Source: Mayamaea pseudoterrestris (Eukaryota). Taken from it: a stretch of 64,000 bases of DNA. The notes beneath the pieces are model-generated. The model was not told the origin of the DNA. It saw only the letters and a list, made by a program, of their open reading frames with translations, and made no database searches. The translations under genes and the position numbers were made by a program. The DNA lies in assembly GCA_027923505.1 (NCBI GenBank), contig BROI01000003.1, forward strand, positions 1,240,001 to 1,304,000, in the 5' to 3' direction. Below are positions 10,401-61,326 of the stretch, piece by piece. Position 1 is the first letter of the stretch. Every line of letters begins with the position of its first letter.

Positions 10401-13400
10401 ATTGCCAAGGAAGTCAAAAGACGAGCACTCGAAGGAACATTGCGAACGCGCAGCACATTAGAAGAAGACCTCCGCAACGTCGGCTTGGAATTCAGCAAAG
10501 ACTTAACGACTTTCAACTACCTCGATCAATTTCCAGAAAGCGAGAGAGAAGCAGAACGACAGGAACTACTAGACCTCCTTGCAGAACGCGAGGCAAGAGA
10601 CGCACGCGAAGCAGCAGAGCAACACGCACGCAGATACCAGCCTCCAGCTCGCAATTCAAATCAACTGCAACACGAAAGCCCAAATCCATTCAATGCATTG
10701 AGATACAACGTAAGCGCCAATGCCTACGCGGTTCGAAGAAACAACAACAACAACAACGAATTCGCCCTCGCAACTATCCACGAATCCATTACGTGTCCAA
10801 CCAACTTGGATATCCTGAAGCATCCTGAAATCTTCATTGGCGATACCGCAGCAACCGTCGACTGTACACCTCATCCAGAAGGCCTGTTCGATGCCCGTCA
10901 GATACGAAATGAAGGCATCACAATGGGAAATCAAACAGTCGCCGACATTCAAACCATGGCGAAGCTTCGCGTCGACGCCTGCGATCGATTTGGCAATCCT
11001 CTCTACCAAGGAGTCCTCAACAACGTTGCTTATGCGCCCGAATGCGCCTTCAATCTATTCAGCATCACTCAACGTTTAGCGACAGGATGGAACCTCCGCA
11101 GCGGCAACAAGAAGATCTGGCTAGAAAAAGAAAACCAACACTCCATCGTCTTCGACTTGCTGATTCCTACCAAGCGAGGTCATCTTTACTGCATGTACTT
11201 GAGACGAGTCATTCCAATGCCATTAGTTCAAGCGCCTCGCAACGAGTTTGCCATGATTGCAGCCAACTTGCTTCCGACACGCCGTCTCGCCTACAAACAA
11301 ATGCACGAATTGTGCGGACACCAAAGCCCCCAAATGACACTCGCAATTGCCAAGCACTTTAGATGGGAAATACACGGATCGTCCAAGAACAAGTGTGTTG
11401 CCTGCGCAATAGGCAAGGCCAAGAAGCAACCGGTCCCTCAAATATCGCCGCGCATCCGAGCCACAGAGCCAGGCGAGCGACTTTACATGGACCTCTCTTC
11501 ATTTAGAGTCATGAAGAGCAAATCAGAACTTGGATTCTCCTCCATACAACCGCAATGGCAACTCATTGTCGACGAAGCGACAGGCTACAAGCACAGCGCC
11601 ATGTACCGCACCAAAGGGGAAATCGTTGAGCCGACATGCCAGATGCTCTACTATCTCATCCAACGCGGCATTACAGTCAAATACCTTCGAATGGACAACG
11701 CCGGAGAGAACCAAGCATTAGCCAAGTCAATGAAGAGCTCCGCTTGGAAATTGCCGATCGAGATCGAATGGACTGCGAGAGACACCCCGCAACAAAACAG
11801 TCTTGTCGAAATTGGATTCCCGACGCTTACCAATCGCACGCGAGCCATATTCACAGCTCAAAACATTCCACCTTCAATCCGCTTTCATTTGGCACCGTCT
11901 GCTTTCGAATATTCAACCGACATGGACAATCTTGCTATCGTCGAGCACAAGGGCACTCTAGCAACTCGATTCAAACACTTCTACGGCACCGAGTCGCCCA
12001 TCATCAAGAATCTACACCCATACGGCGAAGCAGTCACTGTTGTGATATCCGGATTAAAGTCTCATCTAGCACCAAAAGGATTCCAAGGCATCTTTGTCGG
12101 CTACAGCAAAAATCACCCGAGCAGATGCTATCGCGTCTTCAATCCCGAGACCAATCGCGTACATGACGTCAAGGACGTCACATTTCTTCACCGACCGTAC
12201 TTTCAACCTAAGCCCCCGCGTCACGAAATCGTCACTACACCACTCATTGACGTCATTTCCTGCAACAGCAACTACAGCAGTCTTTTCTCACCGCATCACC
12301 ATGGGAATCTGCCGCCGCCACCCGCAAAATTTCCAGACGACAAGAACAAGAAGAAACCAACGTTCCACACAAAGCGCCTCCTAACACGATCTACCTCGCT
12401 GATTGATCTGACCGACCATGACACCCCAGAAGCATCGGAAGCCTCACCAACAAACTCAATCCAATCAGCCCCCGACACTTTCAACCCAACTGCACTTACA
12501 ATATTCCAACCAAATGCACATGCACCAGCAAGCGCGCAAGAAGAAGTGACGGATGCACCCAATACGCCTCAATCTCCAAGAGCGCATCCTACAATTACCG
12601 ATCGACAAGCCAACGCAATACAAAGACACATTGCTCGATTCTCATCAAACCACTCACGAGGATCACAAAGCTCAAGGTCATCTACACGCTCCACCCGATC
12701 CAATCCTGGTGGCTTGCGTCGCACCACACGAGAGACAAGAACACCAACTCGATTCGATCCGACCAATCCTGCAACATTCGCCGCCATACTTGCCGCACTC
12801 GACGAACGATTTGGCAATCGCACAACACTATACAACGCATGCGACAACGGCTATGACAGTGACCGATCAGCTGAATCAGAATATGACAAGTACTGCGAGT
12901 CTGACGAGCAAGAATTCCACCACCAACCATATGACGACCAGCAAGACGAAGAATCAGTCTCATCGAACGGGTCCATACCTCCTCTGGTACCTCGAAATGA
13001 CGACTACAGCAGCGCAGGTGACAGCGAAGCTCCTGAACTATGGGGCAACGAAGACAGTTTCTGTTTGCCTACACAAGATCAACGTTACGAAGCTGCCTAC
13101 GAGCCATCACACGAGCGCGACGACGACTCCGTATCATTAAATGATTCCATACCCGACTTAGTCCCAAGAGCCGACGACCATAGCAGTGCAGGAGACAGTC
13201 AAGCAATCGAGCTGTGGGACATTAATGCAGACGACGATGAATATGAAGAAGAGCTCACCCGAGCAAATGGACGTCCCGCACCTCAACCAGCCGCACCTCA
13301 AGCGTCTATCGAAACAGTGATCACGACTCGAGTCTCCAACGTTTGCAGCCCGACTCTTCAACTCGGGAAGGGTTTTAACCCAGATGACCATGAAGATAAA

Positions 13401-15842
13401 ACATCTATACCAGTCACCGAGACACAAGACGAAAGCGACGAGTCGACAAACCAGCAAATCGATCTACCGCCAGAACAACTTGCCATCATGGCCGATCTCC
13501 TACACGTTCCCTCTTCAACGATTCTCGACGACACACATACATCCGTCCATGATTCGCCATACCAACAAGAAAACGACCATGAAGACCAACAAAGCTTCCA
13601 TAGCGCCGACTTGATCCCTGCAGAAATCCATTTAAACCTCGACGAGACAAGCGAACCACCGAACGAGCCCACGAATTCCACCTTTGAATACTTCTTCCGC
13701 GACATGCCCAGCGCGCCGTCTAGTGCAAGCATCTTTTACGACGCGTCTCCCATTCCCACACTCGGAGAGTTTGCGTGCGTTGGAGCAGGCATTGGAGGCG
13801 GATTCATCAACACAGAAGAGTTGCATACGATCAAGTTCAAGCAAGCCATGGGCAGTCCAGAGCGTCCTGAATGGATCAAGGCAATACACAAGGAGAAGGA
13901 CAACCTCATCAAGCACGGCACATTCCAAGTTGTTTCACGCAGCATGATACCACCTCGAACAAAGTGCATGACAAGCAAGTGGGTGCTCAAGAAGAAGTCA
14001 AACGGCACGTACAAGGCACGAATCACAGCAAGAGGCTACGAGCAAGAGGACGGTATCCATTATGACAGCAACAAGATCTCATCTCCAGTAGCATCGCCAA
14101 CGTCCATCAAGATTGTCACAACTCTTGCCATCATGATGGGATACGAGCCACACATCTTCGATATAAGCGGAGCATTCCTCTACGGCACGTTTGACGAAGG
14201 CCACGAATGTTACATGCACATACCTGAAGGTTTCCAAGACGACTATCCACCCAATCACGTTTGGCTACTCAAGCGCACGCTATACGGAACTAAACAAGCT
14301 GCGCGAGCGTTCTGGGACCAACTGGTTAAAGCACTTCGACAGATAGGATTTGAACGAAGTGTTGCCGACCCTTGCCTGTTTTACAAACAAGATGGCGACC
14401 GCCACATGCACATCGTCTCGCACATCGACGATCTCCTGTTAAGCGGCCCTCCGGACATGATTGAAGACACCAAGAAACAACTTCTACAGCACTTTGACGG
14501 CGAAGACGGTGGACCAATGGACGAGTACATTGGTTGCAAGATTGAACGAGGCGAAAACTACATGCGATGGACGCAACCAGTCCTCCTGCAAAGCTTACAA
14601 GACGAGTTTACAATCCCTCCGCCGAGGCGCCAAGAAGCATGCGTCCCTGCTCAACCCAAGTGCGCCCGTCGCGTCAAAGAAGGCGATCCTTCCGCTCTAA
14701 GCAACAACAAGCAGACGACCCTTCGACAAGGCCTAGGCAAACTACTTTACCTCGCCCGATGGTCTCGACCAGAGACACTCTACGCCATAAATGACTTATG
14801 CCGAGCCATGAAGACGGGAGAAGAAGCCCACGAGAAAGCCATGTACCGAGCCATCCGCTACATGTGTGCAACACCAAAGAGAGGCAGACTCTTCCTCCCA
14901 AATCGCGAGTATACTGGCCCAAACCACGTCTTTATCATCAGCGCCAGAAGCGATTCAGATTACGCCAAGGATCCCGACAAGCACAAGAGTCATTCCGGTG
15001 GCATCACCTTCCTTGAAGGCGTTCCCGTCGCTGAAGTTTGCCGCTTACAGAAACACGTCTCCCTTTCAGTAACTGAGTCCGAAATGTCCGCAGGTACCGA
15101 CGTCATACAAGACATGCTCCACACACATGCCATTCTTCAGTCAATAGGCCTCAAAGTCCAACTACCAATGGTCCTGGAAATGGACAACAGCGGCGCAATC
15201 GACATCATCAACAGCTGGAAGACAGGAGGGCGCACACGCCATGTTGACGTACGCCATAACTTCGCTCGAGAGCTCAAAGAACACGGCATCCTCCTTGTCA
15301 AGTACATTGAAACCAAGAAGAACACGGCCGACATCTTCACCAAGAACTTGGACCTTTCTACCTTCAATCGCCATGCACGGATCCTAGTTGGAGAGGATGA
15401 GTACTACAAGATGGACTCAATGCCTGAAACTATCGCTCTCCAAGGGAAGGGTGCTGGGATCCCCGTTTTGGCCGACGAACAAAGCAACATTGAAAAGGAC
15501 ATCGACACGGTCCCAGCGGCACCAAGACACGGAACATCCCGTTCACGACCACACTCCTACGACGGCGAGAGTAGAAAGTCAGCCACTGGCCCAAACCCTA
15601 CACACTTCACCGTACCCGAAGAATTCACGACTGACAACCGTAGAAAGACTACCACAGGTACATCGAATACCGGAACCGGCGTACACAGCGAATGTTGGGA
15701 CTCTACAGAGCGAAGCCGTGCAAACACTACCAGCAGTGAAGACCATACTGCCAGTTCTGTAGACGGACGAGAGCCATCTCACCTACGGGATGGCCAGTAC
15801 AAAATGACACGACCGGTAGACAATATACATACGTATGAATGA
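7446..15842 (+). CDS. Gag-Pol polyprotein, 2,798 aa (Gag zinc knuckle, aspartic protease, integrase, RT, RNase H)
   Basis: CYLCHQPYHRSADC (~8310); FIGDTAAT protease (~10842); HELCGH..CVAC, LYMDL, RMDNAGE, QQNSLVE, GIFVGY integrase; YKARITARGYEQ, FDISGAFLYG, LYGTKQA, SHIDDL RT (~14421); SDSDYA, EMDNSGA, RHVDVR, ADIFTK RNase H. Confidence 0.97.
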   Translation: MTDQQEDITMNALYKTPKITNTIEAFPSWFNQFKNHARIAGCRRPIRGSRPEHLPATQNEVITDPAANATADEIQIIRNKQAERKQNETLMQMLSIALSPFPELNDHLVGAESTEYPGGEAWKVINALEIKFSPDKFMAPTLYRRSIQNLKLERPTANPQDLIDLMQSQAIKFNQTLLAEDLMATLMNKLPPQYCLALAQEQKTKQRALTKTEMEGVVSTIYQTIYAAEDEEALIQGVNEIVLYAAQPEPPQQETSRQQNTRQHQAPPTRNERPQTNYNNTRNPPSFKCYLCHQPYHRSADCFERVENAHRRPRGWNTRLSIEARRQLEDEEAREQQERGLERPRERPRNSNRQQDRRLPQDDQQEDRRYRQNRNNERTRDQPRDNDYRRRDHQEQPRQLEHQNHRQEPHPRTIMREQVPRQAPLLLEQGLAAVHEALQLTQRSHRSSSQRSSSSRRYPSTNSRSEFAFIHADLVDETYPALPTRTPAAPTPSPLYPQTNWRGLQPHQIKDYSSEDDSSIEQPPAPPTTRTKRTRPTSSTTNKKQAVELVSLTKSSATSESPKPKPNLPSSNLNGRSWASICGDPSTSDEEESDFEDEFVNSKTPTEQERRHFSTLIQNIETLEQTKQEDGKGLLFHKQDEPSKSEQQVHTSIEEQASNLNDSYHGYNATQSTNNVTTSSDTTEATNLEPTTTNANECDTHERTDNVTTCSADKDSTPTTSPPIELKEEESVEELVATSFAQWRGDWLPKDFLTADELKEVEHLYPTFAPRIPNNIPPQANSNDLPPFHVLQSVLFINPPLYELSDAIKVMFADLQEFFLEHIAMPHAFTHQEAIDSTRDRYYQYTGLRVWDTERVEIIMSNPGDEETNSDDATYDSDAYPSSQSYRSDSFTYEGYQAFLQSWEHRNQAPEHVVSRARYETTIQQIKKDEQDIETNPASAARLCMLERFSQRRFLKDLIFWFEEINEEDEEALFDERLKVVIDHAIAKEVKRRALEGTLRTRSTLEEDLRNVGLEFSKDLTTFNYLDQFPESEREAERQELLDLLAEREARDAREAAEQHARRYQPPARNSNQLQHESPNPFNALRYNVSANAYAVRRNNNNNNEFALATIHESITCPTNLDILKHPEIFIGDTAATVDCTPHPEGLFDARQIRNEGITMGNQTVADIQTMAKLRVDACDRFGNPLYQGVLNNVAYAPECAFNLFSITQRLATGWNLRSGNKKIWLEKENQHSIVFDLLIPTKRGHLYCMYLRRVIPMPLVQAPRNEFAMIAANLLPTRRLAYKQMHELCGHQSPQMTLAIAKHFRWEIHGSSKNKCVACAIGKAKKQPVPQISPRIRATEPGERLYMDLSSFRVMKSKSELGFSSIQPQWQLIVDEATGYKHSAMYRTKGEIVEPTCQMLYYLIQRGITVKYLRMDNAGENQALAKSMKSSAWKLPIEIEWTARDTPQQNSLVEIGFPTLTNRTRAIFTAQNIPPSIRFHLAPSAFEYSTDMDNLAIVEHKGTLATRFKHFYGTESPIIKNLHPYGEAVTVVISGLKSHLAPKGFQGIFVGYSKNHPSRCYRVFNPETNRVHDVKDVTFLHRPYFQPKPPRHEIVTTPLIDVISCNSNYSSLFSPHHHGNLPPPPAKFPDDKNKKKPTFHTKRLLTRSTSLIDLTDHDTPEASEASPTNSIQSAPDTFNPTALTIFQPNAHAPASAQEEVTDAPNTPQSPRAHPTITDRQANAIQRHIARFSSNHSRGSQSSRSSTRSTRSNPGGLRRTTRETRTPTRFDPTNPATFAAILAALDERFGNRTTLYNACDNGYDSDRSAESEYDKYCESDEQEFHHQPYDDQQDEESVSSNGSIPPLVPRNDDYSSAGDSEAPELWGNEDSFCLPTQDQRYEAAYEPSHERDDDSVSLNDSIPDLVPRADDHSSAGDSQAIELWDINADDDEYEEELTRANGRPAPQPAAPQASIETVITTRVSNVCSPTLQLGKGFNPDDHEDKTSIPVTETQDESDESTNQQIDLPPEQLAIMADLLHVPSSTILDDTHTSVHDSPYQQENDHEDQQSFHSADLIPAEIHLNLDETSEPPNEPTNSTFEYFFRDMPSAPSSASIFYDASPIPTLGEFACVGAGIGGGFINTEELHTIKFKQAMGSPERPEWIKAIHKEKDNLIKHGTFQVVSRSMIPPRTKCMTSKWVLKKKSNGTYKARITARGYEQEDGIHYDSNKISSPVASPTSIKIVTTLAIMMGYEPHIFDISGAFLYGTFDEGHECYMHIPEGFQDDYPPNHVWLLKRTLYGTKQAARAFWDQLVKALRQIGFERSVADPCLFYKQDGDRHMHIVSHIDDLLLSGPPDMIEDTKKQLLQHFDGEDGGPMDEYIGCKIERGENYMRWTQPVLLQSLQDEFTIPPPRRQEACVPAQPKCARRVKEGDPSALSNNKQTTLRQGLGKLLYLARWSRPETLYAINDLCRAMKTGEEAHEKAMYRAIRYMCATPKRGRLFLPNREYTGPNHVFIISARSDSDYAKDPDKHKSHSGGITFLEGVPVAEVCRLQKHVSLSVTESEMSAGTDVIQDMLHTHAILQSIGLKVQLPMVLEMDNSGAIDIINSWKTGGRTRHVDVRHNFARELKEHGILLVKYIETKKNTADIFTKNLDLSTFNRHARILVGEDEYYKMDSMPETIALQGKGAGIPVLADEQSNIEKDIDTVPAAPRHGTSRSRPHSYDGESRKSATGPNPTHFTVPEEFTTDNRRKTTTGTSNTGTGVHSECWDSTERSRANTTSSEDHTASSVDGREPSHLRDGQYKMTRPVDNIHTYE
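15442..15451 (+). other. Polypurine tract of the LTR retrotransposon
   Basis: AAGGGAAGGG immediately 5' of the 3' LTR. Confidence 0.85.
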
Positions 15843-40310: not shown

Positions 40311-40530
40311 CAATACACCAAGTACGATGCATTCTCCAACGCGACGAAGCAACACATTTCCTCCTCATACGTGGGCATTCGAAATGGAGCATCGACTGGG
40401 CGTACTACAAAACTTTGTCATGCTGACGGAGCAACGCAACCGCGGATCCGTGGCACCGGCAGTGTGGGAAGCACTAGCTGACTTGGAAGAAATGCGACAG
40501 TCGATTGTGCAAACGCAGAATACGTTGTGA
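38824..40530 (+). CDS. Rab-GAP TBC domain protein
   Basis: IIDKDLHRL (IxxDxxR), GYRQGMHEI (YxQ), KWLRLLFSRE, LWD. Confidence 0.9.
40267..40308 (+). repeat. (CAG)13CAA polyglutamine tract in the TBC gene
   Basis: Read directly; encodes Q14. Confidence 0.9.
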
Positions 40531-41015
40531 CCAAGTCTTTGATATACATATTGGTAAACTAGGTTAGCTGACTCGCTAGCTACTTTGATACTGCTTCTTC
40601 GGTAGTAGTCGTCTATTTCTCAAGCCCAACTACTGGAGTTATGCACGAATGTCTTGTGACAGCTCGACTCGTTCCTTTTTAGTGGATCATGAACACATCA
40701 TGAAAAGTGTTCGCGACAAGAGGGGCAATACTAAATGTCTTTCGATGACTTATGGGGCAATAGTCAGAAAATCTCCAAATTTTCAGTCGGACGTCACACC
40801 ATGGTGGCGCGCGCTCACACCATCATCGATTCGTCAACTTCTCGCATGCAACAAGGCAACTGCAGAGACGCAATAACAACACTCAACGAGAGCTTCTTGT
40901 GTGCAATCTTTGACGCTGCTTCCACAGATATCAATATTTATAACCTCGGCGTGCTATTTGATTTAAAAGCGGCAGGCTTTACAGAGATTCTAGTCTGACG
41001 AAGAATTTCGATGCA

Positions 41016-42398
41016 ATGAAATTCTCCGTTTTTCAAATATCGACTCTCGCCTCTACAATTTTCTTCCAAAAAGCTACTGCCCAGACTCCTTCGGCTCTGC
41101 CATCCATGGCTCCAGCCACTGCCAGTAGCCCAGCAGCAGAAATTACTCCATCCAGTGAAGTTTCCGCAGCACCCTCACAAGCACCCTCACAATCAACGTC
41201 ATCGGAAGCACCGTCGCCCTCACCACTTTCAACTCCAACAACTGGAATGTCAGCAAATCCATCCGCTGCTCCCGTATCTCTTGCTAGTCCGTCGCTGGTG
41301 CCTAGTGTCTCGCCAGCGAGCAATGCACCATCGGCGTCTCCAGTGACCAAGGTTTCGGCTGCACCTTCCTCAACGCAAGTGTCAAAGCAATCAAACTCTC
41401 CCTCCGCTGTACCAAGTAATGCTCCAGTTGTGAGCAAGGGAACGCCATCTGCTGTTCCAAGTAATGCCCCAGTTGTGAGCAAGGGAACGAGCAATGCGCC
41501 GTCCACCGCGCCAGGAAACAAAACAACCAACACTCCCTCTTCAGTACCAAGTAAAGGAGCAACGAGTCAATTGCCTTCCAATGCACCCAGCAAACTATCG
41601 AGTCCAACTGTCGCTCCAGTGAGTAAGGGGACAAGTCGAGCGCCATCCATTGCTCCAGCGAGTCAAGAAACCAGTCGTGCGCCGTCGGATGCCCCGGTGA
41701 GCAAAGTAACTAGCAGAGCACCATCGGATGCACCAAATGCAGGAACGAGTCAATCGCCTTCGGCCTCCCCAGTTGGTAAAGCAACTAGCCGAGCGCCATC
41801 GGACACACCAAATGAAGGGACGAGCCAACTGCCATCGGTCTCCCCGGTCAGTAAAGAAACCAGTCGAGCGCCATCAAATGCACCAGATGAAGGATCCATC
41901 CTCGCACCATCCTCTGCGCCAGCTGCATTGATACCATCAATCAACCCATCCTTGCGGCCAGGCACATCGAATCCGCCATCCCTTGCACCAGTGCCTAGCG
42001 CGCTTACGTCCAAAGCTCCTTCGACTGCACCAGCAACCGAAACGCCAACCACGAATATTCCGACGACCCTCGTCCCCACCAAGGCACCAAGGACGAAACG
42101 ACCAACACGCCCTCCAACCACCCGCAGACCCCGAACGCGCAAACCAACGCCAAAGCCCGTGCGCGTACGTGTACCGCTCCGGAGACCGACGCGACGCAAG
42201 GCTGCCATCACTGTGCGAACATGCTTCCAAAAAGTGCAGACAACGTGCAACTGCTCACTCTTTTTCAAGGGCAGCCTCTGCTGGAAAGATGTCGCTGTGA
42301 ACAAGTGTCAGTCGCCGAGTCAAGCATACAATGACAATGTTTATAATCAGTATGAAAGGTTTTGTAGAAAACGAGGTACCTGGAATGGGTTCTTTTAA
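41016..42398 (+). CDS. Secreted mucin-like S/T/P-rich repeat protein with basic PT(R/K) segment and 6-Cys C-terminal domain
   Basis: Signal peptide (…ATA-Q); many PSxxP / TSRAPSxAP repeats; PRTKRPTRPPTTRRPRTRKPTPKP; six Cys in the last ~60 aa. Confidence 0.8.
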   Translation: MKFSVFQISTLASTIFFQKATAQTPSALPSMAPATASSPAAEITPSSEVSAAPSQAPSQSTSSEAPSPSPLSTPTTGMSANPSAAPVSLASPSLVPSVSPASNAPSASPVTKVSAAPSSTQVSKQSNSPSAVPSNAPVVSKGTPSAVPSNAPVVSKGTSNAPSTAPGNKTTNTPSSVPSKGATSQLPSNAPSKLSSPTVAPVSKGTSRAPSIAPASQETSRAPSDAPVSKVTSRAPSDAPNAGTSQSPSASPVGKATSRAPSDTPNEGTSQLPSVSPVSKETSRAPSNAPDEGSILAPSSAPAALIPSINPSLRPGTSNPPSLAPVPSALTSKAPSTAPATETPTTNIPTTLVPTKAPRTKRPTRPPTTRRPRTRKPTPKPVRVRVPLRRPTRRKAAITVRTCFQKVQTTCNCSLFFKGSLCWKDVAVNKCQSPSQAYNDNVYNQYERFCRKRGTWNGFF

Positions 42399-42765
42399 AC
42401 AAATGACTGGCGAGTTGGTGTGAGAACGGGATAATGAAAATGCGCAATAACAGTAAACGACGGTTCGAGCAAAGCATATAAGATGTATCATTAAAAGTAT
42501 TACTATAGATGTATCTGCGTGTCACAAAATAGATTACAGTATGGCTTACTGGATATATGCTTTCGTTACTCGCCATTGCAACAGTTCAGACAAAGTGCAT
42601 GCAGACTATCCTGCACAAGAATAATAATGGATGCTATTCAATGCAAACAATTAGTCAGGCCCAGGTCAGGTTGCATTCAAACAAAGAAGGGCTGCAACAC
42701 TCACTTCCTCACACTTACCAGTCGTTTGCTGATAAACGTTTCGGAAATACAAACGATCAAGAAAT

Positions 42766-44469
42766 TCAGACTTTTAGACGATGGCCGATACTGGTTCCAT
42801 CTTCACTTGCTCCGCCATTTGAGTCACCATTGGTAGCGCCATTTTCATTGCCGCCCCCGCTGGTTCCTTCACTACCGGCACGTTTGCCAGTTCCGCCATC
42901 GCTCTTTCCACCACCTCCGGCGCGACTACCAGTTTTACCTGAACCACCGACACCTCCTTCACCATTGTCCTGTCCTTCGCTTCCTCCATCACCAGCACGT
43001 TCGCCAGTTCCGCCGCCGCCGCCGCTTGCTCCAGAGTCTCCTTCAACGCCTCCCGCGCGACTGCCGGTTTCTCCATCCCCACCGGTACCTCCTTCACCAG
43101 TGTCGCTGCCTTCTTCTACACCGCTACTGCCCGTTTCGCCAGCTTCCCCATTTCCTCCTTCACCATTGTCTGTTTCTGTATCTTCTTCACCACCACCGGC
43201 GCGACTGCCAGCTTTGCCACCCGACGCCCCTCCGCCAACGGATTCGATGGGGTCATGCTGGCCCACCTTTAACGATCGACCGAATGTTTGAGCGCGACGA
43301 CGACCGACTCCCTTAATGGTCTTCGGACCTTCGCGCGTTTCGGGTTCCTTTGGCTCCTTCTCCTCGGGAAACTCCGGTTCCTTCGGCAGCTTGGGTTCCG
43401 GCATGTCTCCAGGCGATTCCTTCGTCACCTCGTCGTCATTGCGGATAGAGGCGAGGCGACGACGCTCTCCCTTGCTGGCCCTCGGTCCTTCGCGCGTTTC
43501 AGGCTCCTTTGGCGCTTCCTTGTCCATTGGCGGCTCCTTTGGCTCTTTGGGATTTTTCGATTCCTTCTCGACAGGCTGGAGTTGGCGACGACGCTCTCCC
43601 TTGATAGCCCTTGGTCCTTCGCGCGTTTCAGGTTCCTTGGGCACTTCCTTGTCCATCGGCGGCTCGGGAGCTAGCGGTTCCTTTGGCTCCGGTTCCTTAA
43701 ACTTGGGTTCCTTGTCGACGGGCGGTTCTTCGAAGTGAAGCTGGCGAAAACGACGCTCTCCCTTGATTGCTCGAGGGCCTTCAGGTGGCTCTGGTTCCTT
43801 TGGCGCTTCCTTGTCCATCGGCGGCTCGGGAGCTAGCGGTTCCTTTGGCTCCTTGAAAGCTTCCTTGGGCTCCTTCTCGACGGATCCTTCGGGATGAAGC
43901 TGGCGAAAGCGACGTTCACCCTTGATTGCTCGAGGACCTTCAGGCGACTCTGGTTCCTTTGGCCCCTCCTTGTCGGCTGGTCCTTCCGGCGCTTCCTTGC
44001 CAATGGGTCCCTCGGGTTGCAGCTGGCGACGACGCTCGCCCTTGACGGTCCGTGATGGACCTTCCGGGGATTCCTTCTCCGCTTCTTCCTTGGGCGACTC
44101 CTTGTCGACGGGCGCTTGCGCATGAAGCTGACGCCGCTCGCCCTTGACAGTCCGTGATGGATCTTCCGGCGATTCCTTCTCCGTTGGTGGTTCCTTGGGC
44201 GGCGACTCCTTGTCGACGGGCGCTTGCGCATGAAGCTGACGACGGCGCTCACCTTTCGGCGCCTTTGGCTGACTCACCATCAAGTGACGACGACGACCCT
44301 TGGTTGTCTTGGAGCTTTGCGGTGGCTCGGGCTGCTGCACCATCAAAAAGCGGTGCGCGGAGGATCGACGCAAGGTGGTGAAGAGTGACTTGCTTGGAGC
44401 TGCACCATCCTGCGACGCGGCTTGCGATGAAGCAAGCAGCAAGCAAAGAAAAGGAGCGAAAGGTTTCAT
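42766..44469 (-). CDS. Secreted repetitive polyprotein (567 aa) with ten RXL sites; candidate biosilica/cell-wall peptide precursor
   Basis: Signal peptide MKPFAPFLCLLLASSQA. K/E/P-rich units each ending in KG(E)RR..RxL. G/E/S/T-rich C-terminal domain. Confidence 0.8.
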   Translation of the reverse strand: MKPFAPFLCLLLASSQAASQDGAAPSKSLFTTLRRSSAHRFLMVQQPEPPQSSKTTKGRRRHLMVSQPKAPKGERRRQLHAQAPVDKESPPKEPPTEKESPEDPSRTVKGERRQLHAQAPVDKESPKEEAEKESPEGPSRTVKGERRRQLQPEGPIGKEAPEGPADKEGPKEPESPEGPRAIKGERRFRQLHPEGSVEKEPKEAFKEPKEPLAPEPPMDKEAPKEPEPPEGPRAIKGERRFRQLHFEEPPVDKEPKFKEPEPKEPLAPEPPMDKEVPKEPETREGPRAIKGERRRQLQPVEKESKNPKEPKEPPMDKEAPKEPETREGPRASKGERRRLASIRNDDEVTKESPGDMPEPKLPKEPEFPEEKEPKEPETREGPKTIKGVGRRRAQTFGRSLKVGQHDPIESVGGGASGGKAGSRAGGGEEDTETDNGEGGNGEAGETGSSGVEEGSDTGEGGTGGDGETGSRAGGVEGDSGASGGGGGTGERAGDGGSEGQDNGEGGVGGSGKTGSRAGGGGKSDGGTGKRAGSEGTSGGGNENGATNGDSNGGASEDGTSIGHRLKV

Positions 44470-45196
44470 GTTGGTTGCAGTGTTCTGGCTGGTTGATGAT
44501 TGCGTTTCTTGGACCACGGATCGGTCGAATAATGAGGAGGAGGCGTCTCGTCAAGGCTGCACGACTTACAAAATTTGGTAAAGCTTTCAAGTAAAGATCC
44601 TTGGAGTATCGTATAATTGGGAGCGCTTGCATCATGGTCGCATACATGTGAGCAGTGCGTGGGGGTAGCCGTTGCTTGAAAGTAACGTCCTCATTTTTTG
44701 AGTCGAAGCTTTGCAGTAAACGCAAACGTAATTCACAACGTAGCTAGCGAGACGGAATCGTTCGTGAGCTACAGCTAAAATTTGGCCAATCTTTCAAAGT
44801 CTTTGCATGAAAATCTACATCAAAAGAGGCATGGCAAGACATGATGAAACTGTGAGGTTCATCTCGTCTCGTCACATCGCTCCATCGCCGATAAAAAGTC
44901 GCACAGGTTTTATCCATAACCGGTCAGACATTTGTCACATCCGTTTTTCCGCGTCGACGCGCCATTCGCTTCCACCATGATGCTCCCTCGTTCGACGCCC
45001 ACGGTCACGCTGGCGAAGCATTTATGCACGCAGCGAACAGTTGAGGTACCTCCGCGGTCCATCCTTGTCGATTTGAGTCGTACTACCAAGAAATGGACAT
45101 GTTCACTCGTTCGACCACAAATGTGGCGAGTTGCAAGCTGCTAGTTGAGCGATTGCATGCTGCTGGCAGCCAAAAGCTTGTCATCGCCATTGAAGC

Positions 45197-46518
45197 ATGC
45201 CTCCCGTCCAAGGAACCAAGCGACTCTCCGATAAGGATGTGAGAGAAATCTTTTCGTGCTTGTTTGAGTATGGCAAGCGTCCTCCGAGTCATTTATGCTT
45301 TCAAATTGTGCCAGTGGTGAGTTTCATTCTTGGATGCAAGAGAGAGTCGCAAGTCAGACGAGCAATGTTATTGAAGACTCTGACTTCTTCCTTCTCTCAT
45401 ATAATAGGGTCCAAATGGATTGAAACTCTCACCTCCATCGCACGAATTTGAAGGTAAGTATTCATACGTATTTCTTTGTTGTCGCCATCAGGCTAGTCGC
45501 CATCGCTCACCTTTACCATTCTTCTTTATGCTTGTATGCAGATGGTCTCTACGTCTTGCTACGTCCCCAATCAAAAAAGAAGTCTGCTCCCATTCCCCAG
45601 CCACCGGTGCATTTGCATGATCTTGTTGTCCGCAATGCCCTTGCGGAGAATTGCGCTTGGAGCTTGTCGGGGCCGCAGTTTCCAGTCACCAACAAGCCAG
45701 GAGCCTTGCAGCAGCGTTACTGCTACCCAAAGGGCCGTCCCGAATATAGCAGTTACAAGGGTGGCGCGCTCTGGACGATGCGCGGCGTCGATGGAAAGGA
45801 GGACTGCGAGTTTCGCTTGCTGCACGTTTATCAGAGTCAAAAGCGCGCGGCCAACAAGGGAGTGACGTTGACACCAAGCACGACGCCATTGAGTTGCGAG
45901 TATACGCAGTATCAGCCCGTTGCGAAAAAGCCGCGCTACATTTCGCCAGCACGTGAGCGAGTTGTTCCAGCCGTCAGGTGCAGCAAAATCATGTTTCCAG
46001 ACAGCAACATTCACCGCATCAATAGCTGCGCCACTTTGGAGACAACGCTTAGCTTTCCGACGTTGGAGCATGGCTTTTCGCATTCCTTTGAAAGCATTCA
46101 AGCTAATGCACCGGCTTCTTCCCCTCGATTATGTCCGGATACGCTGAGCAGTCAAGACCCATCTTTCGTCGCTGGTCATTACTGTCCAAACAATCATCAT
46201 CCGCCGCACCCGACTTGCAGTCACGAACAACTTGATTTCAACTTTCAGGACTTGCACAATGATCCAATGCTGCAGGAGATGGAGCAGCAGCGCAATGTGA
46301 CACACGAAACAAAGTTTTTGCAGCGCTTGGGTGTCGTGCATGAAAAGATTTGCAAGTATATTTTTGACCAGCCCGAACACTTGCAGCCCACCTTGGTGAG
46401 TACACTGGCTGGCTGGGCGAGAGCCATGGCCATGGATCCGCTGTCGACTCGATCGTTGCAGAATGATGACTATCGCGAAACGTATGGACGTGCGCAGGAT
46501 CATCACGCATGTTGTTGA
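45197..46518 (+). CDS. Hypothetical protein, possible DNA-binding regulator; join(45197..45316,45408..45453,45542..46518)
   Basis: Two GT-AG introns join three ORF pieces in frame (MPPVQGTKRLSDKDVREIF...VPV|GPNG...FE|DGLYVLL). Globular N-terminal half, low-complexity C-terminal half. Confidence 0.65.
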
Positions 46519-46670
46519 AGAGAAAAAGTGACTGCTATTGGTCGTTTTAGACGGAGAGATTTGGTGATAGATGAAGATTTTATGAATCCTCGATGGGTTT
46601 GTTATTATTATACACTAAGTATAAATCAGTGCACATGGTTCTATAAAAGACTTGTTATAGCGTGCTCTTA

Positions 46671-47735
46671 CTACTCAAAGATGCTGTCCGATCGAAAGTT
46701 TTGATCCTCAACGCCTTCCATTCCCTTGCGCGAGTACAAAAAGTAGCAGACTGGCCGCGTCACGTCGCTTGCATTCGGCGTCCCCCGATGAATGGTTCTG
46801 TAGTCATACAGCAGACAATCTCCCTTTGTCAATATCCCATCCGTTCCTCCTGGCAGTGCTTGCTCGCCTTTCTTGTCAAGCAGCTTGCTGTACTTGTGCG
46901 AGCCGGCCCAAAACTCCGTGTAGCCAACGCTGCGATTCAAGTCAATCAAGGGTACAAAGACGCACAAGGCGTGCGTCGGCGCAGCTTCCTCTAAATCAAA
47001 ACTTGCCGATGCACCAACATGTACTCCGTCCGAGTGATAGTACTGCATGCCAGCGCCTGGCAAGGACAAGACGCATCCACACTTGACCAATGAACAGTTT
47101 TCGCCCAATAGTTCCTTCACCAATGGCTTCCATTTGCCAGCAGCTTCGAATTTCTTCCACTGATCATCACCACTTGCCAAATCCATGCGAAAGTCGAATC
47201 GATTATTGTCTCGTCGCATAATCTCCTTGTAATGCTGCTTGGGTTTCGTTTGTAGCAAGGCGTAGAGTTTCTCAAAGGTCGACACTGCCAACTCGTACAA
47301 TTCATCAACGTGACTGATGTTGATTGCGTCTTTTATGCCAACGAGTCCATATTGACGAAACGTTTCAGCGTTGGCATTCATGGGAAGCTCCGTTGGCAGT
47401 AATGGAATGGGAGTGTCCTGCAGGACCAGCAACAGCTCCGCCTTGCCAATCACCGCTGCTTGCGTCTCCAGTAATTGGACAATGCGGTCACAAACCTGCT
47501 CGATGGTTTGGACATTTTCCTTGTCAATGATGTCAAGCTTGCCAGAAATTTCCAAAAAGCCAAGTGGATCAGAAAGTGCGGGATGCACCAGGGAAGCGTT
47601 GCGATGATGCGTCCATTTCAGAACAAAGTCGCCGTGGTCCTTGGCAACACACTGGCAAGCGTCTCGTAGTTGATTCGTCGAGATGGTTGGCTGAACGGGT
47701 AAGACTGCGAAAAAGACTCCGTATGTGGCTGCCAT
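46671..47735 (-). CDS. Phytanoyl-CoA dioxygenase-like (PhyH) Fe(II)/2-oxoglutarate dioxygenase
   Basis: SLPGA.MQYYHSDG (HxD), VFVPLIDL, TEFWAGSH, GDCLLYDYRTIHRG..N, RP. Confidence 0.85.
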   Translation of the reverse strand: MAATYGVFFAVLPVQPTISTNQLRDACQCVAKDHGDFVLKWTHHRNASLVHPALSDPLGFLEISGKLDIIDKENVQTIEQVCDRIVQLLETQAAVIGKAELLLVLQDTPIPLLPTELPMNANAETFRQYGLVGIKDAINISHVDELYELAVSTFEKLYALLQTKPKQHYKEIMRRDNNRFDFRMDLASGDDQWKKFEAAGKWKPLVKELLGENCSLVKCGCVLSLPGAGMQYYHSDGVHVGASASFDLEEAAPTHALCVFVPLIDLNRSVGYTEFWAGSHKYSKLLDKKGEQALPGGTDGILTKGDCLLYDYRTIHRGTPNASDVTRPVCYFLYSRKGMEGVEDQNFRSDSIFE

Positions 47736-48194
47736 GTTGCGTGGGAAGTGGTGCAGCAAGTGGAACGATGATGGAACGGATTCATGGTCGTCGCGAGGCT
47801 GTCACGCTTTCGCAATCGTGTGTCACACGATTGCCGCCAGCACAAGCCAGCTATCGTAGTTGTACAAATGATTTTTTGCCAATACCTGTTGTACAAGTAA
47901 GCTTTTGCTAATACGCAAAGACAGTACGTATTCATGGGCTCTTTGTTACTTTTAGGTGTGACACTGTCGCTAAATTATCACGATTTGAAAAGCCAGAAAA
48001 TTAACAAAAATGAGATTCCATATCGCATGCGGAACGATGTGGCCGATTTGGTACTACACAAACTTGCATCTTTTGCATGTCGAAAGGTGTGGATACACTT
48101 GCTGAAATGCCAAGTACCCACTGGCCCCTTACAGTAAATACTCGGATACGATTTCGGCAAGCTTATAGACCGCCAACCAAATGACTCGCACCTC

Positions 48195-49795
48195 TCACGA
48201 CATTGGCGGATACGAGTACTGAAAGATCCTCATCAAGTTTTCGTCCAAGTGTTCCTTGGCGTAGATCAAATCCTCGGTTGACATTCTCGCCACGCGCAAC
48301 GCAGCATCACCCGTCTTTTCCACCACTTTTAAAAAAGTCGTGCCACTTCCATGGCTCTTGCTTGATCCAGATTGGAACGTGAATGCATCTGGAACGGTCG
48401 TGCCGGCACAGTCGGCAATAATCTTCATAATCGTCGGTGCGTGTAATATCATGTCCTCGAACCGAAAGATGAGTCGAGGATATGTGGCTTTCAAGTAGTA
48501 ATTGTACCAATCGCTCCACAAGTGTGCCAAGGAGTCCCAGTGAAATTTTTGATGTTCGTCAAAAATAACCTTGACGGGAAAGGTGTCATTTATTTCATTT
48601 CCAAACCGCTTCCGATCATCCTCGTCGGGTACCAGGTTGGGACAGTGCGCGGGTCGCGACTTCCAGTGAGCCGCGTAGGATGATTTGCACATGGAGTGCA
48701 TCCAGGAGTATGGATCGCGAATTAACACAATGGGTAGAGCCTCGAGCTGATTGTACTTTTCGAGACCGGATGCCGTATGATTGAGTCGAACGAACTGTGT
48801 CAATGAATGCATCGTAGTAGTGGATCAAAAGACTGAGTTAGCTTTCATTCGAAAAAGTCAGCCTGCCTCTTCATATCGACTACTGGTAGCTTACCTCCAT
48901 GCGATGCTTTCCCCAAGGTACTGCAACAAGGAAAGATACGAAATCACACATTTCGTAAGAGAGAGTGATCGACAAAAAGCAGGAAGAGTGGTTTGCGGGC
49001 GAATCACTAACAGGTCACACTGCACACAACTCGGCGACGACGTTAAACCCAGTAAAATCTCGCCCACTCACCTTGCCAGGCACTATTCAAAACAATATTC
49101 TTGCGCAAATGATGTTCCATCGCATTCGTTCCCGTGTTGAATAGACCCGCCACGGCGGCGTATCGCTTGGGCGGCGGCACCATGTTGCGATAGGAAGCGC
49201 ACGTTTCCAAACCAACAATGAGCGGCTCGTCCAAGTTTCCATACAAACGTTGCAGCGCCTTCCAATCCGGCAAATGTTTCTTGTCTTTTTCGGTCAAGTC
49301 GTTGATGCCAGCGTTGCGTAGTAGCTGTATAATGGGATGCTCGTCGTTGGCAATGTCGGCTTTTGGAAAGGCGTCGGCTGTCAAGTTCATGTCCTTGATA
49401 TCCTTCCTGACGACATCTTGTATAGTTGATTTGGATTCAGAGATAGCATCGATCGATTGTATTCTTTGTTTCGTTACTAATTCTACACCCATAATGTTGC
49501 GATTCAAGGTTGAATTGTCCAATGTCCATGCAGAGTTATCGAAAAATTGCAATCGTTGCTGCTCGTTCAACAAGTCTGGCTGCCGAAACAAGAACATTTG
49601 CAGAAAGCATGCCGCAAACGCAAGCACTAACAAAAGTGTTCCAAGAGTATGGGTGCTGCTACTACTTCGACTTGATGAGCGTCCCTGCAATGCTTTGCGA
49701 TCGGTACGTGACGAAGGGGGCGGCGACAATTGCGTATCTGGCGCGCCATTTTTGGATTGCGGGGAAGCCTTGAGCTTTCCGCCCTTCTCTGACAT
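48195..49795 (-). CDS. Type II membrane sulfotransferase-like protein; join(49072..49795,48895..48920,48195..48794)
   Basis: TM anchor; VAGLFNTGTN; WQ|VPWGKH on a 26-nt micro-exon; VLIRDPYSWMHSMC; FRFED. Confidence 0.75.
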
Positions 49796-50396
49796 GTACT
49801 GATTATCTTTCGGGTCTCAATAAAGATATAAAACTGTTAGCGCCTGTGCTATTGCTTGTAGTCAGCTTGAGCGATGAATCTATCCAAGTCATGCGGTCAT
49901 CGCGCGCCGCGCCGTCGCGGCGGAAGTGCAGTGCTGCTACGACACGTACCCGACATCACGATTTGCTATCACACCGAAGCTGGCATGTTTGTACAACAAC
50001 AGTCGCTAGAGTATGATATATTAGAAGCTTCGAAGCTATCATACGTACGAAAGAAGCTTGCCAGGTTCAAAAATGCTAGGGTATCATGGAGGAACTATGA
50101 GATATCTAATCAATCTGCATGCTTCCCTCCCATAAGACCGGCTTTGAAAAGGCGTTCGCGTGAGCAACAGCTCTTCAGCATAAGGATAACGAGAAGGTAT
50201 ACTAGTATAGTATCAGACTAGATAAAGAGTATGTGCAAGATGTCTCTAAGTGTTTGTTAGCAAGTAGCAAGTGTACTAGTATTTACAGGGGAAGCTTGAT
50301 GGCAAGCCAATGCATGACATCTTCACTCCTCACGCAGAGTGCGCCACGCAGCACCGCATCAGCAGAGTGTATTGTGACGACGAAAGGGGTAGAGTA

Positions 50397-51041
50397 TTAA
50401 AGACTTGTGCGTCTTGCTTGGCGTCCACTTGCTGTTGTCCTGGAATGGATAGCTTGTTGAGGCGGGTGCTGGCCGTGACGCCTCGGTGTGGCATTTGTCG
50501 GATCATGCGGATGGAACCGTCCACTAGTAGTCCATGATTGTTGGGGGATTGTGGTTGAGGAGCAGAAGGTACTGGCGCATCGTCGACGGAGCGGACGGGG
50601 TATCGTGGTGGAGAGTCTCGTCGTCGGAGCGGATGCTGGGGCAATTTGTCCTGCGCAGAGGATGGCTGGCTGTGAATGGCGTTCATGACGAGCATGGGAG
50701 ACATGGTTCAGGCTGTTGTGGTTGATTAAAAAGGCGATAATAGAATGAATCGGCGGGTTGCGAGGGATTGTGAGACGAGGCACGAAGGCTCTGCTTTGCC
50801 CCGCTGAGTTGGTCGAAGAGTTGGCCATCGAAACGGATCGAAGTGACACTGTCGTACGTATCACAGGCGAATCCTTGCGCACTTTCCTAGCCAGGGCTGT
50901 GCTTTTGACTGACCTGGACCTTCCGTCCCTGACGAGTTGCGGAGAAACTGATACGCGGGCGCAAATTAGACGAGGCTGACTCACTTTGCCCCAAACGTTT
51001 GTCGGGCTGGCATGAGTCATGACTGACGCATGGAGAGTCAT
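50397..51041 (-). CDS. Possible low-complexity hypothetical protein
   Basis: Overlapping ORFs (50397-51041, 50330-50704) with S/P/R-rich content. Exon structure unresolved. Confidence 0.25.
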   Translation of the reverse strand: MTLHASVMTHASPTNVWGKVSQPRLICARVSVSPQLVRDGRSRSVKSTALARKVRKDSPVIRTTVSLRSVSMANSSTNSAGQSRAFVPRLTIPRNPPIHSIIAFLINHNSLNHVSHARHERHSQPAILCAGQIAPASAPTTRLSTTIPRPLRRRCASTFCSSTTIPQQSWTTSGRFHPHDPTNATPRRHGQHPPQQAIHSRTTASGRQARRTSL

Positions 51042-57526: not shown

Positions 57527-58905
57527 TTAGGGAACATCTGGTGCATCGGCGCCTGTTTCAGTTACCCGGGCTTTCTTGGCAGCAGGCTCATCAGACTCCG
57601 CAGCTCTATCGTCTGCAACTGCAGCCGAAGCTTCAGAGACGGGCTCCGCCGACGGGGCAGAAGCATTGGCGTTATTCACGAAGAAGGCTTCTTCTGCTTC
57701 CTCGACTTGCCCTACAACGCGCCGACCCAGATAGACTTCCACTGTGTGTAGAGATAATGTCAGTTCATGATGAAAGATGAGATGAATTTGCTTCACAAAC
57801 ATCGATTGCCAAACTTACTCTCTGCCTTGTATCGAACCATATCTTCATCCGCCTTGGCCTTGTAGTACTTGACTTGGTCAGGTGCCAGCTCCTGCCAGCG
57901 CCTTCCGATCACCTTGGCAAGGCTTTCAAATCCAATCTTGCCATGCGGGCGCTTCTTGCGAGCCGCTCGATCCATTTCTCCAATGTCGTCCTCCTTTTCC
58001 AAAGCGCTCTCCTTTGCATCTGCAACACTATCAATGTCCGCATCGGCTTTGGCAACGTTGGTGCTGATGTTGGCCTTGGAATCACCCGAAATGTCCTTTG
58101 CTTCTACTTTTTCGTCCTGTCGCACCGTACCAGTAGCCTCGTCGTCCTTTGTAATGGCGTTAATATCACTGCCACTATCGGCTTGATCCTTGTTTGGAGT
58201 CTCTAATAGAATTCGCTGTCGTTCCTCTCGAAAGAAAATGTTGTATGCCGATAAAGGCCGTTTGGGACGATCCTTTGGCCGCTTGCGAACGCGTTTGTTG
58301 TTCTTGGTCGTAACGACATCGTAGGGAGCAACGCTGCTGGCACCCATGCGCCCCAGCAAGCCCGCCGAGTTGGCCGACCATGGTCCCAGATAGCCTTGAT
58401 CGGCGTATGGATCTGTCACTCCTGCCGATGCAGCCATGGTGCTATTGCTCGCGTCTCCTCCAACGGTAGCCGCGGCCTGTTGTCCCCAGTTCATAAAGAC
58501 AGGCATTCCAGCCATTCCTGCATGCTGATGCTGCTGCTGCATGAGAAATCCACCAGCGGCGATCATTTGCTGCTGCGCCTGCTGCATCAAGTACTGCTGC
58601 ATGAGTAACGGAAAGCCTTGCATAGTTGCGGCTAAATTGTTCGGATCATGACTTGCGGGAAGGGCTAGTGGAGGTTCGTTAGCTGTGCCACCATGGTTCG
58701 AGCTTCTGACGGCGTTGGAGGACGTGAGAGGCGATGTCATGTGAAGCTGGCCCTGTCCCATGGCTCCTGCATGCATTTGCGGATACAAGTTGGATGGCTG
58801 CTGCTCCGGCGTTTCTTGCGAAGCGTCGTGTCCTAGAGGCTGTTGCTGCTGCTGGTGCTCCGGCATGCTGTGATACATGCTTGGTGGAAGATTCGAGCCG
58901 TCCAT
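57527..58905 (-). CDS. HMG-box protein; join(57819..58905,57527..57741)
   Basis: RPKRPLSAYNIFFREER...PHGKIGFESLAKVIGRRWQEL...YKAKADEDMVRYKAE|MEVY; Q-rich N-terminus. Confidence 0.88.
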
Positions 58906-60126: not shown

Positions 60127-61326
60127 ATGCAAAGCATCGTCTTACCGGAACAAAGGATTTTAACTGCAGCCATCCACAAAATTCCTCCAAACTTCCATTT
60201 ACAAGGCGGCAGCTCGCACTCGCTTCAATCGCGCAAACGAGGCATGGATCCTGGCAAGTCTGAGAAAGATATTGACACTGACAGCAGCCAATCGACTGAT
60301 TCGGATACAGAAAGCACCGCCAAGCCTGCCATGATGGCAAATTCCGCTGCGTTTCAAGGACTTCCATTACCTATGCAGATTCAACAGCCCAATCCGAACT
60401 TGACGAACGGCGCTGGAATGCCCTTCTATGCATCTATGCCAACCGCCCCGCAAGGTTTGACATCCTATCTTCCAACTCAGATGCAAGCGCCAATGTATCT
60501 TCCGTTTCAGCAGCAACAGCAGCTCGCCAACAACTTGCGGTTCAACCTGATGCAATCAAGCAGCATGCCAGCGTTCAACATGTTGCCAGGAGGCATGCTT
60601 TCGTACGGTAACGTCCATGACTTTAGTCAGCAGCAGTCCTATCTTCAGGGACTCTCGTTGAACTCTCAAGCGGCATTGCTACATCAGCAACTGCTCCAAC
60701 AGAGCCAAGGCCAACTACTTCATCGAAGCGTCTCCGATCCAACCACTCACCATGTAGCGCAAACGAGCAGTGATGCTCCGACCAAGGTTTCGGAGGAAAC
60801 GGAGACAAGCGGGAGCAGCCAAAAGGCGTCAGTCGCGCCGACGAACAACGTTGGTTCTTCAGTCATTGAAGTCCGACCCAAGGTCGAGGATAAACCCAAG
60901 CGACCCCTTTCTGCTTACAACCTCTTCTTCAAAGAGGAACGGGCCAAGATGATTGTCGAATTGTCGGGCGGAGCAGCAGATGCATTGTCAGACTCCTCCT
61001 CGGGTGGCGGGGAGCGATCGAGGCGAAAGAAGCAAAAGCCCCACCGCAAAGTCGGCTTTGAGGAATTGGCAAAATCCATTGGACCAAAGTGGCAGTCGTT
61101 GGATCCCCTCATCAAGGCTCAGTATCAAGCGTTGGCTGACGAAGAGAAGAAAAGGTACCAGGCAGACATGGCGATTTTCGTCAGCAAGCAGCGAGAGGAT
61201 ATGGAAAAGTGCCGCGAACAGCTTGAAGCTACCGTCAGCGAGGAGACCATGCAACAGTACCTCGCCTCTAGTGGAGCTAGAACGGCGAGTCGCAAGCGAA
61301 AAGACGTGGGAGGAGGTAGTTTGTAG
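60127..61326 (+). CDS. HMG-box protein (start may be the ATG at 60244)
   Basis: KPKRPLSAYNLFFKEER...PHRKVGFEELAKSIGPKWQSL...YQALADEEKKRYQADM; Q-rich N-terminus. Confidence 0.88.
   Translation: MQSIVLPEQRILTAAIHKIPPNFHLQGGSSHSLQSRKRGMDPGKSEKDIDTDSSQSTDSDTESTAKPAMMANSAAFQGLPLPMQIQQPNPNLTNGAGMPFYASMPTAPQGLTSYLPTQMQAPMYLPFQQQQQLANNLRFNLMQSSSMPAFNMLPGGMLSYGNVHDFSQQQSYLQGLSLNSQAALLHQQLLQQSQGQLLHRSVSDPTTHHVAQTSSDAPTKVSEETETSGSSQKASVAPTNNVGSSVIEVRPKVEDKPKRPLSAYNLFFKEERAKMIVELSGGAADALSDSSSGGGERSRRKKQKPHRKVGFEELAKSIGPKWQSLDPLIKAQYQALADEEKKRYQADMAIFVSKQREDMEKCREQLEATVSEETMQQYLASSGARTASRKRKDVGGGSL

Follow-up and report, generated by a model that had tools for sequence, protein, structure and literature searches.

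A transcribed orphan gene of the diatom Mayamaea pseudoterrestris encodes a predicted secreted RXL polyprotein that may supply cell-wall peptides

One open reading frame in a 64,000-nucleotide stretch of the Mayamaea pseudoterrestris genome (assembly GCA_027923505.1, contig BROI01000003.1, positions 1,240,001 to 1,304,000; hereafter the window, whose own numbering we use) raises the question of whether this diatom makes RXL-cut peptides of a chemistry other than that of silaffins and silacidins, and whether such peptides belong to silica. The frame (P0001, 42766..44469, minus strand) is a single exon of 567 aa without introns. A preliminary description, made from the letters alone, read it as a secreted polyprotein that releases a new family of biosilica or cell-wall peptides. 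Statements attributed below to published work refer to excerpts of each source.

The translation bears out most of the layout that had been described. Ten RxL sites lie at the repeat ends, at residues 40 (RFL), 61 (RHL), 77, 113, 148, 189, 242 and 295 (RQL), 337 (RRL) and 398 (RSL), eight of them directly after KG(E)R (KGER at seven, KGR at one), and they bound units of 21, 16, 36, 35, 41, 53, 53, 42 and 61 aa, cut motif included, among which both units quoted in the preliminary description are present. All features lie on the minus strand. The start is signal-peptide-like by a hydrophobicity heuristic, as had been claimed (predicted signal peptide, about aa 1-19, 44413..44469), and leads into a pro-segment that ends in RFL (aa 20-42, 44344..44412). 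Units 1-2 (aa 43-79, 44233..44343) are short and weakly basic, with one KxxK each, including PKAPK; units 3-4 (aa 80-150, 44020..44232) form a pair of 102-bp period that starts HAQAP, with a pI of about 4.9 and zero KxxK; units 5-8 (aa 151-339, 43453..44019), rich in PKEP and KE, have a period of up to 162 bp and a pI of 4.6-5.5, end in (A/S/I)KGE-R(R/F)nQL or RRL, and carry paired KxxK in units 6 and 8. Unit 9 (aa 340-400, 43270..43452) is a diverged repeat with a KG..RRR site of its own that lacks the Leu (aa 386-394), overlooked in the first reading; its RSL stands six residues beyond that Arg run. The C-terminal Gly/acidic domain (42769..43269) measures 167 aa where about 165 had been given, with 39% G, a net charge of -17, a pI of 4.3, 30 Ser/Thr and five RAG; the (G/E/K)RAG repeats ascribed to it are there as ERAG and KRAG, GRAG is absent, and SRAG occurs three times instead.

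The chemistry of the repeats needs more correction. The repeat region holds 18.6% P, 12.7% K and 20.1% E, with Ser at 4%. KEPK and KxxK, which had been given emphasis, do occur (four and eleven times), but KE is the dominant motif (29 of 44 Lys), PKEP is found ten times, and three of the nine units are without KxxK. The units are likewise Pro/Lys/Glu-rich as stated, but the seven long ones carry a net negative charge at pH 7 (-1 to -5) and are not balanced zwitterions.

Is the gene real? Its synonymous-codon score falls at the 53rd percentile among the long ORFs of the genome and shifted frames score negative; one antisense frame of the locus scores above the coding frame. When the seven long units are compared, pS is 0.65 against a pN of 0.25 over all 21 pairs, which are not independent and whose protein-guided alignment biases towards low pN. 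The gene region was also found in four runs (X1-X4) of a single study, which carry no record of run type and were compared over window positions 40400-50400. Coverage in X1 is even, with zero joints, and X2-X4 are taken to be RNA because they skip the GT..AG introns of neighbouring genes. One X2 contig starts at 43537, crosses the stop codon and joins 42633 to 42719, skipping an 85-nt GT..AG intron of the 3' UTR (42634..42718, minus strand) that begins 47 nt beyond the stop codon and has the minus-strand ends GTAAG..TAG; the joint is absent from X1. This contig is a spliced minus-strand transcript of the precursor gene, and speaks against the refuting case, named in the preliminary description, that the gene is not expressed. 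A second contig, from X4, has a joint from about the same donor to an acceptor further down. One X2 contig skips 162 nt, possibly through repeat collapse, which was excluded as evidence for variation in unit number, and gaps in contig cover were given no weight.

Over the same interval the runs also show another allele, which differs from the window by about 2-4% and has in-frame indels in the precursor gene. The indels within the ORF are three, all small and each of 3 nt, and the UTR indel is of 2 nt; among 40 of the 270 variants, six of nine ORF substitutions are silent. One allelic indel, at 44243, removes a single Arg from a run and retains RRQL. The exact protein is absent from a 15-billion protein collection in which four of eight neighbouring ORFs looked up are present, so the gene has probably gone unannotated so far. 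The precursor is the product of a real, transcribed orphan gene under protein-level constraint.

The word family, by contrast with the gene, is unsupported: this is a single gene with no relatives in the genome or in the collections searched. In a 5.8-billion collection, searches with aa 55-402 at near lengths, with a repeat profile at longer lengths and with aa 20-567 at shorter lengths each returned no homolog among the best 8000 candidates scored. A phmmer search with aa 44-400 against 1.84 billion representatives gave 0 matches, Pfam had 0 matches for the precursor, and ESM Atlas gave no usable match. Metagenomes yielded 327 pattern stretches, 0 of them confirmed; the string KGERRRQL, proposed for a search of other diatoms, occurs there as at least 118 single matches, none of these 118 in a P/K/E context and with tblastn scores due to low complexity only. 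All these blank homolog searches are weakened by low complexity and by the scarcity of diatom genomes in the collections. Within the own genome, the repeats, the tail and the N-terminus each match this locus alone; KGERR (56 matches, control 70) and ERRRQL (25 matches, control 44) cluster only at the precursor locus, and 45 other motif loci contained no similar protein (26 KGERR matches without a locus were left out). In the literature covered, which leaves most subscription journals outside, we found no report of this protein or of diatom P/K/E RXL peptides. Silica-extracted proteins are typically species-specific, disordered and of low complexity (bioRxiv 2021.09.18.460806), and species-specific disorder is equally usual for other secreted proteins.

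None of 10000 composition shuffles of the precursor has ten RxL sites (mean 1.6, maximum 7), a test that overstates their significance because the units arose by duplication (periods 102 and 162 bp). The density of 1.76 per 100 aa is exceeded by two of 188 control ORFs, drawn from 600 kb of this genome (60 stretches of 10 kb each, evenly chosen), so density alone is not unique. The placement of leucine sets the precursor apart: of the 14 leucines that follow aa 33, ten belong to an RxL, against a mean of 6% and a maximum of 29% in the same controls. R and L are constant across the sites, with five different residues between them and with varying codons; the unit bodies differ in length, and the junction does not. 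By analogy with known diatom precursors, cutting after each RxL is quite probable. In the Sil1p and silacidin precursors RXL ends each repeat and is missing from the mature peptides (PMC4557024).

Products were computed with a cut after Leu and with the Arg-x-Leu spacer trimmed, as in mature silaffins (PMC4557024). They comprise two short predicted peptides of 16 and 11 aa with a pI of 8.4, seven long ones of 30-58 aa and 3.2-6.5 kDa with a pI of 4.6-5.5 and a net charge of -1.8 to +1.4 at pH 5, and a tail of 14.9 kDa. Units carry 4-7 Lys, up to 12 Pro and 1-6 Ser/Thr; the mature precursor has a pI of 5.65, 1.4% His and no Trp, Tyr or Cys. All products fall on the disordered side of the charge-hydropathy line, and no membrane segment follows the signal peptide (beyond aa 25 no 19-aa stretch exceeds a hydropathy of -0.02). 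AlphaFold run without an alignment gave no structure (pLDDT 40.6), which agrees with disorder and adds nothing to it.

RXL sites have been stated to be found only in silica proteins (PMC5647440), and the protease that cuts them is still called unknown (bioRxiv 10.1101/518332, PMC5525289). We examined 11 subtilase genes of the genome, in ten of which the propeptide junction is readable: RxL lies at that junction in three, 77-107 residues upstream of it, directly after the signal peptide, in seven, and at one or the other place in nine. RXL alone therefore does not point to silica, because secreted subtilases of the genome carry it too. RXL marks secretory processing without proving a silica role. 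A lone RxL within aa 15-80 is also common by chance, being present in 55 of 164 non-signal ORFs, and is no more frequent in signal-peptide ORFs (8 of 24); a restricted RxL pattern, chosen post hoc, reached p 0.035 in just one window out of three and is not relied on.

Three clustered secreted subtilisins (G000:C2:2079448-2083596; L036, L037 and L043) have propeptides that end in RRL or RKL, and when L036 is aligned to mature subtilisin Carlsberg and BPN', its residue 134 falls opposite their residue 2, which puts RRL at P3-P1. Because subtilisins cut their own propeptide, here one ending in RxL, the three may prefer RxL, and they are candidates, a lead read from sequence, for the RXL protease; alternatively, they may be clients activated by another RXL protease. 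A diatom subtilisin is a more likely cutting enzyme for the precursor than a site-1 or kexin-type protease. S1P (MBTPS1) domains and motif gave 0 matches in the genome, with controls that were prokaryotic and below the cut-off, and the kexin/furin P-domain gave no candidate, with weak controls. Peptide amidation was considered and is unsupported: the sole Cu-monooxygenase match (G000:C5:339637-343035, L265) is of the DOMON type, with a hydrophobic C-terminus, and is not an amidating enzyme.

The 30.6-Mb genome has 10 silicon-transporter matches (best E 2e-197) and belongs to a silicifier; the Atlas cluster closest to one neighbouring protein consists mostly of Bacillariophyta. One open frame of 1445 aa (G000:C1:2970661-2974680; L263, L264) contains three tandem silicon-transporter domains; triplicated SITs are known in some diatoms. 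The genes that flank the precursor gene are of RabGAP-TBC, MAPEG and PhyH type, and no known silica gene is among them. Directly downstream and convergent (window 41016-42398, plus strand) lies a gene for a secreted, mucin-like P/S/T-repeat protein with 31 P[ST]xxP, a basic stretch of Arg, Pro and Thr, and a C-terminus rich in Cys; it is covered by the RNA-like runs and has no RxL and no Pfam match. Elsewhere in the window, two identical 325-aa membrane-transporter-like ORFs (1561-2538 and 3796-4773, minus strand), 2235 bp apart, adjoin a copia element (7446-15842) and reflect recent duplication or an assembly artefact, and two head-to-head ORFs (57793-58905, minus; 60127-61326, plus) share a KRPLSAYN motif, which we take to be HMG-box-like.

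The reading we favour, at a probability of roughly 0.45, is that the precursor is an RXL-cut source of cell-wall peptides that act in the formation of wall silica. The precursor would enter the secretory pathway by ER import, an endoprotease would cut behind the Leu of each RxL, and trimming of the Arg-x-Leu spacer would then yield, in fixed ratio, two short basic peptides, seven Pro/Lys/Glu peptides of 3.2-6.5 kDa and a Gly-rich polyanion of 15 kDa. More tentatively, the released peptides would act in cell-wall silica formation: in an acidic silica vesicle the long ones could condense because they would be near their isoelectric point there, methyl or polyamine additions to lysine would provide the cation, encoded glutamate in place of phosphoserine would provide the anion, and the tail might serve as a silacidin-like polyanion partner of long-chain polyamines. 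Such peptides would be expected to shape or tune silica within one lineage and not to form part of the core machinery.

This silica reading draws support from the layout shared with the Sil1p and silacidin precursors, from RxL being kept across diverged units, from a P and K content near that of the silica-precipitating Siliplant1, from the silicon transporters of the genome, and from lysine patterns that are uncommon in control ORFs: paired KxxK within 10 residues (3 of 9 units against 9 of 195 control ORFs), a K..K..K..K run (one, against 2 of 195) and PKA.K (one, against 0 of 195). Paired KxxK is reported to give some silica targeting (bioRxiv 2021.09.18.460806). It is weakened by the absence from the precursor of the pentalysine cluster K..K..K.{1,2}K..K (0 matches; at most 4 Lys in 14 aa), of K(S/G)2-4K (0 matches), the mark of silaffin-1 and cingulins, and of 12 of the 13 silica-enriched motifs tested, by KxxK being a minor motif, by the lack of a homolog to carry function, and by a neighbour that is mucin-like and not a known silica gene. 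Activity on silica would need modified peptides, because the long units are acidic where Siliplant1 is basic and because silaffin R5, if left unmodified, shows no activity below pH 6 (PMC4557024); unmodified and acidic, the peptides here would not be expected to precipitate silica like that of Siliplant1. The preliminary interpretation stands as to a secreted, transcribed RXL polyprotein of silaffin- and silacidin-like layout with no homolog found, and its silica link is weaker than proposed. A bolder version, in which the precursor is a phosphate-independent counterpart of silaffins (Glu beside nearly every Lys, convergent with Siliplant1, its own polyanion co-released) and, in addition, the RXL protease is among the three clustered subtilisins, we consider unlikely as a whole.

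The same processing could instead feed a non-silica matrix, such as an organic coat, mucilage or an adhesive trail, with hydrated Pro-rich polyampholytes, possibly hydroxyproline-glycosylated, and a Gly-rich acidic chain that binds cations; we hold this to be rather unlikely, yet it is favoured by RXL on secreted non-silaffin proteins of the genome, by the weak silica-targeting patterns and by the secreted P/S/T-repeat protein next door. In a different diatom the adhesive trail has much Ser, Gly, Thr and dihydroxyproline (bioRxiv 2023.03.06.531300), which recalls the G/E/S/T-rich tail, and a flatworm adhesive protein has a repeated peptide containing PKEPK (PMC6410801). The excerpts of that trail preprint, however, contain no RXL or RRL, and the proteins in them are PTS-repeat or Cys-rich, with the units here holding so few Ser/Thr; pieces of 3-6 kDa would also seem ill-suited to a cohesive polymer, and the repeated-RXL polyproteins with tested products are silica-bound (PMC4557024). 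If the Arg run were the true signal, a dibasic (kexin/furin-like) or site-1-type cut in another register would release soluble signalling or defence peptides. At least two Arg at eight of the ten RxL sites, RRFR at two, the further, ninth KG..RRR site without Leu and a fit to the site-1 motif as defined in PMC13082318 (RxLx at 10 of 10 sites, RxxL at 6 of 10) speak for it; the Leu persists at sites 1 and 10, where just one Arg stands, the RxLx register puts Pro at P1' in three sites, candidate enzymes for such cuts and for amidation were not found (controls for the former being weak), and units of 11 to 58 aa without a constant core would be unlike ligand precursors, so that we regard this as improbable.

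About equally improbable is that only the first one or two sites are cut and the remainder stays a long disordered polyampholyte, with the internal RQL as passengers of tandem duplication. The sites do derive from duplications, that of unit 9 has decayed, and N-terminal-only RXL is common among diatom wall proteins (PMC5525289, PMC5647440); against this, KGE-Rn-QL is kept although silent sites between units are near saturation, a new RSL stands beside the decayed site, and the junction holds constant while unit bodies vary in length. Least credible by far is a chance frame within repetitive DNA, for which one could cite the protein's absence from a collection that holds half of the neighbours looked up, the lack of a homolog and a 244-aa antisense ORF that overlaps the tail: the excess of pS over pN, frame-keeping indels in the ORF against a 2-nt indel in the UTR, the spliced minus-strand transcript and ordinary codon use argue together for a coding gene.

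RXL polyproteins with tested products are few, all of them Ser-rich and phosphorylation-dependent. If the peptides sit in silica, they would represent a third diatom chemistry and convergence with a grass silica protein; if they do not, RXL would have to be read as a cut site of secretion in general, not as a marker of silica. The ten sites of graded sequence also make the precursor well suited as a substrate in the identification of the RXL protease.

Set against known silica proteins, the precursor shares most of its plan with Sil1p, the silaffin-1 precursor of Cylindrotheca fusiformis: a signal peptide followed by RXL, tandem repeats each ended by a spacer of the Arg-Arg-x-Leu type (PMC4557024), and one acidic non-repeat domain, which here is C-terminal and Gly-rich, unlike that of Sil1p. 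In Sil1p the repeats are strongly basic, abound in Ser and Lys and have phosphoserine for their anion; the precursor lacks basic Ser/Lys-rich repeats and has 4% Ser, 20% Glu and 19% Pro with long units that are acidic (pI 4.6-5.5) and two to three times longer than Sil1p repeats, and no sequence homology was found. The silacidin precursor of Thalassiosira pseudonana is likewise repetitive and RXL-cut into acidic peptides, and the tail here is a comparable polyanion; silacidins, however, measure about 25 aa, are rich in Ser, Asp and Glu and are phosphorylated to about 60% (PMC4557024, PMC11733937), whereas the Lys/Pro-rich units here are neither short nor heavily phosphorylatable, with 1-6 Ser/Thr each. 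By sequence, then, the earlier verdict of neither silaffin nor silacidin holds. Cingulins are also secreted, repetitive, RXL-bearing and of predicted coil (PMC9650480, PMC4557024); their defining features, K(S/G)nK and blocks rich in Trp and Tyr (PMC9650480), are missing from the precursor (0 W, 0 Y, 0 K[SG]nK). Its pro-segment ending in RFL resembles the "RXL domain" after the signal peptide in silicanin-1 and SAPs (PMC5525289, PMC5647440). The motif cluster 5 soluble silicome proteins TpSil3 and CcSSP19 have acidic KxxK, disorder and species specificity in common with it, as well as the one PKA.K (bioRxiv 2021.09.18.460806); their markers DAKA.K, KAEK and the pentalysine cluster are absent from it, in a comparison confined to the preprint's text, so that a closer match is possible.

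The nearest counterpart in composition comes from a plant. Siliplant1 (Slp1) of Sorghum bicolor is a secreted, disordered protein of 524 aa with seven P/K/E-rich repeats and RXL at their ends, all of which the precursor also displays, and its 20% P and 13% K lie close to the 18.6% and 12.7% of the repeat region here (bioRxiv 10.1101/518332). Its repeats are termed a zwitterionic centre, and a P/K/E peptide precipitates silica via Lys (bioRxiv 10.1101/518332; PMC11733937). Siliplant1 differs in its basic pI of 9.28, in its sub-domains, which are His/Asp-rich and Pro/Thr/Tyr-rich, and in having only three RXL, of putative cleavage; the precursor is acidic, poor in His, free of Tyr and of both sub-domains, and has ten RXL. 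We treat Siliplant1 as an analogue by composition; database searches with the precursor gave no match of any kind. The proposal of an undescribed class narrows in consequence: no diatom counterpart was found in the literature covered, but P/K/E with RXL has been described in Siliplant1 and acidic KxxK in diatom silica proteins, so that the peptide class, judged on its residues, would be new for diatoms at most. The precursor combines the known plan of RXL polyproteins with a new diatom peptide chemistry that has its analogue in a plant.
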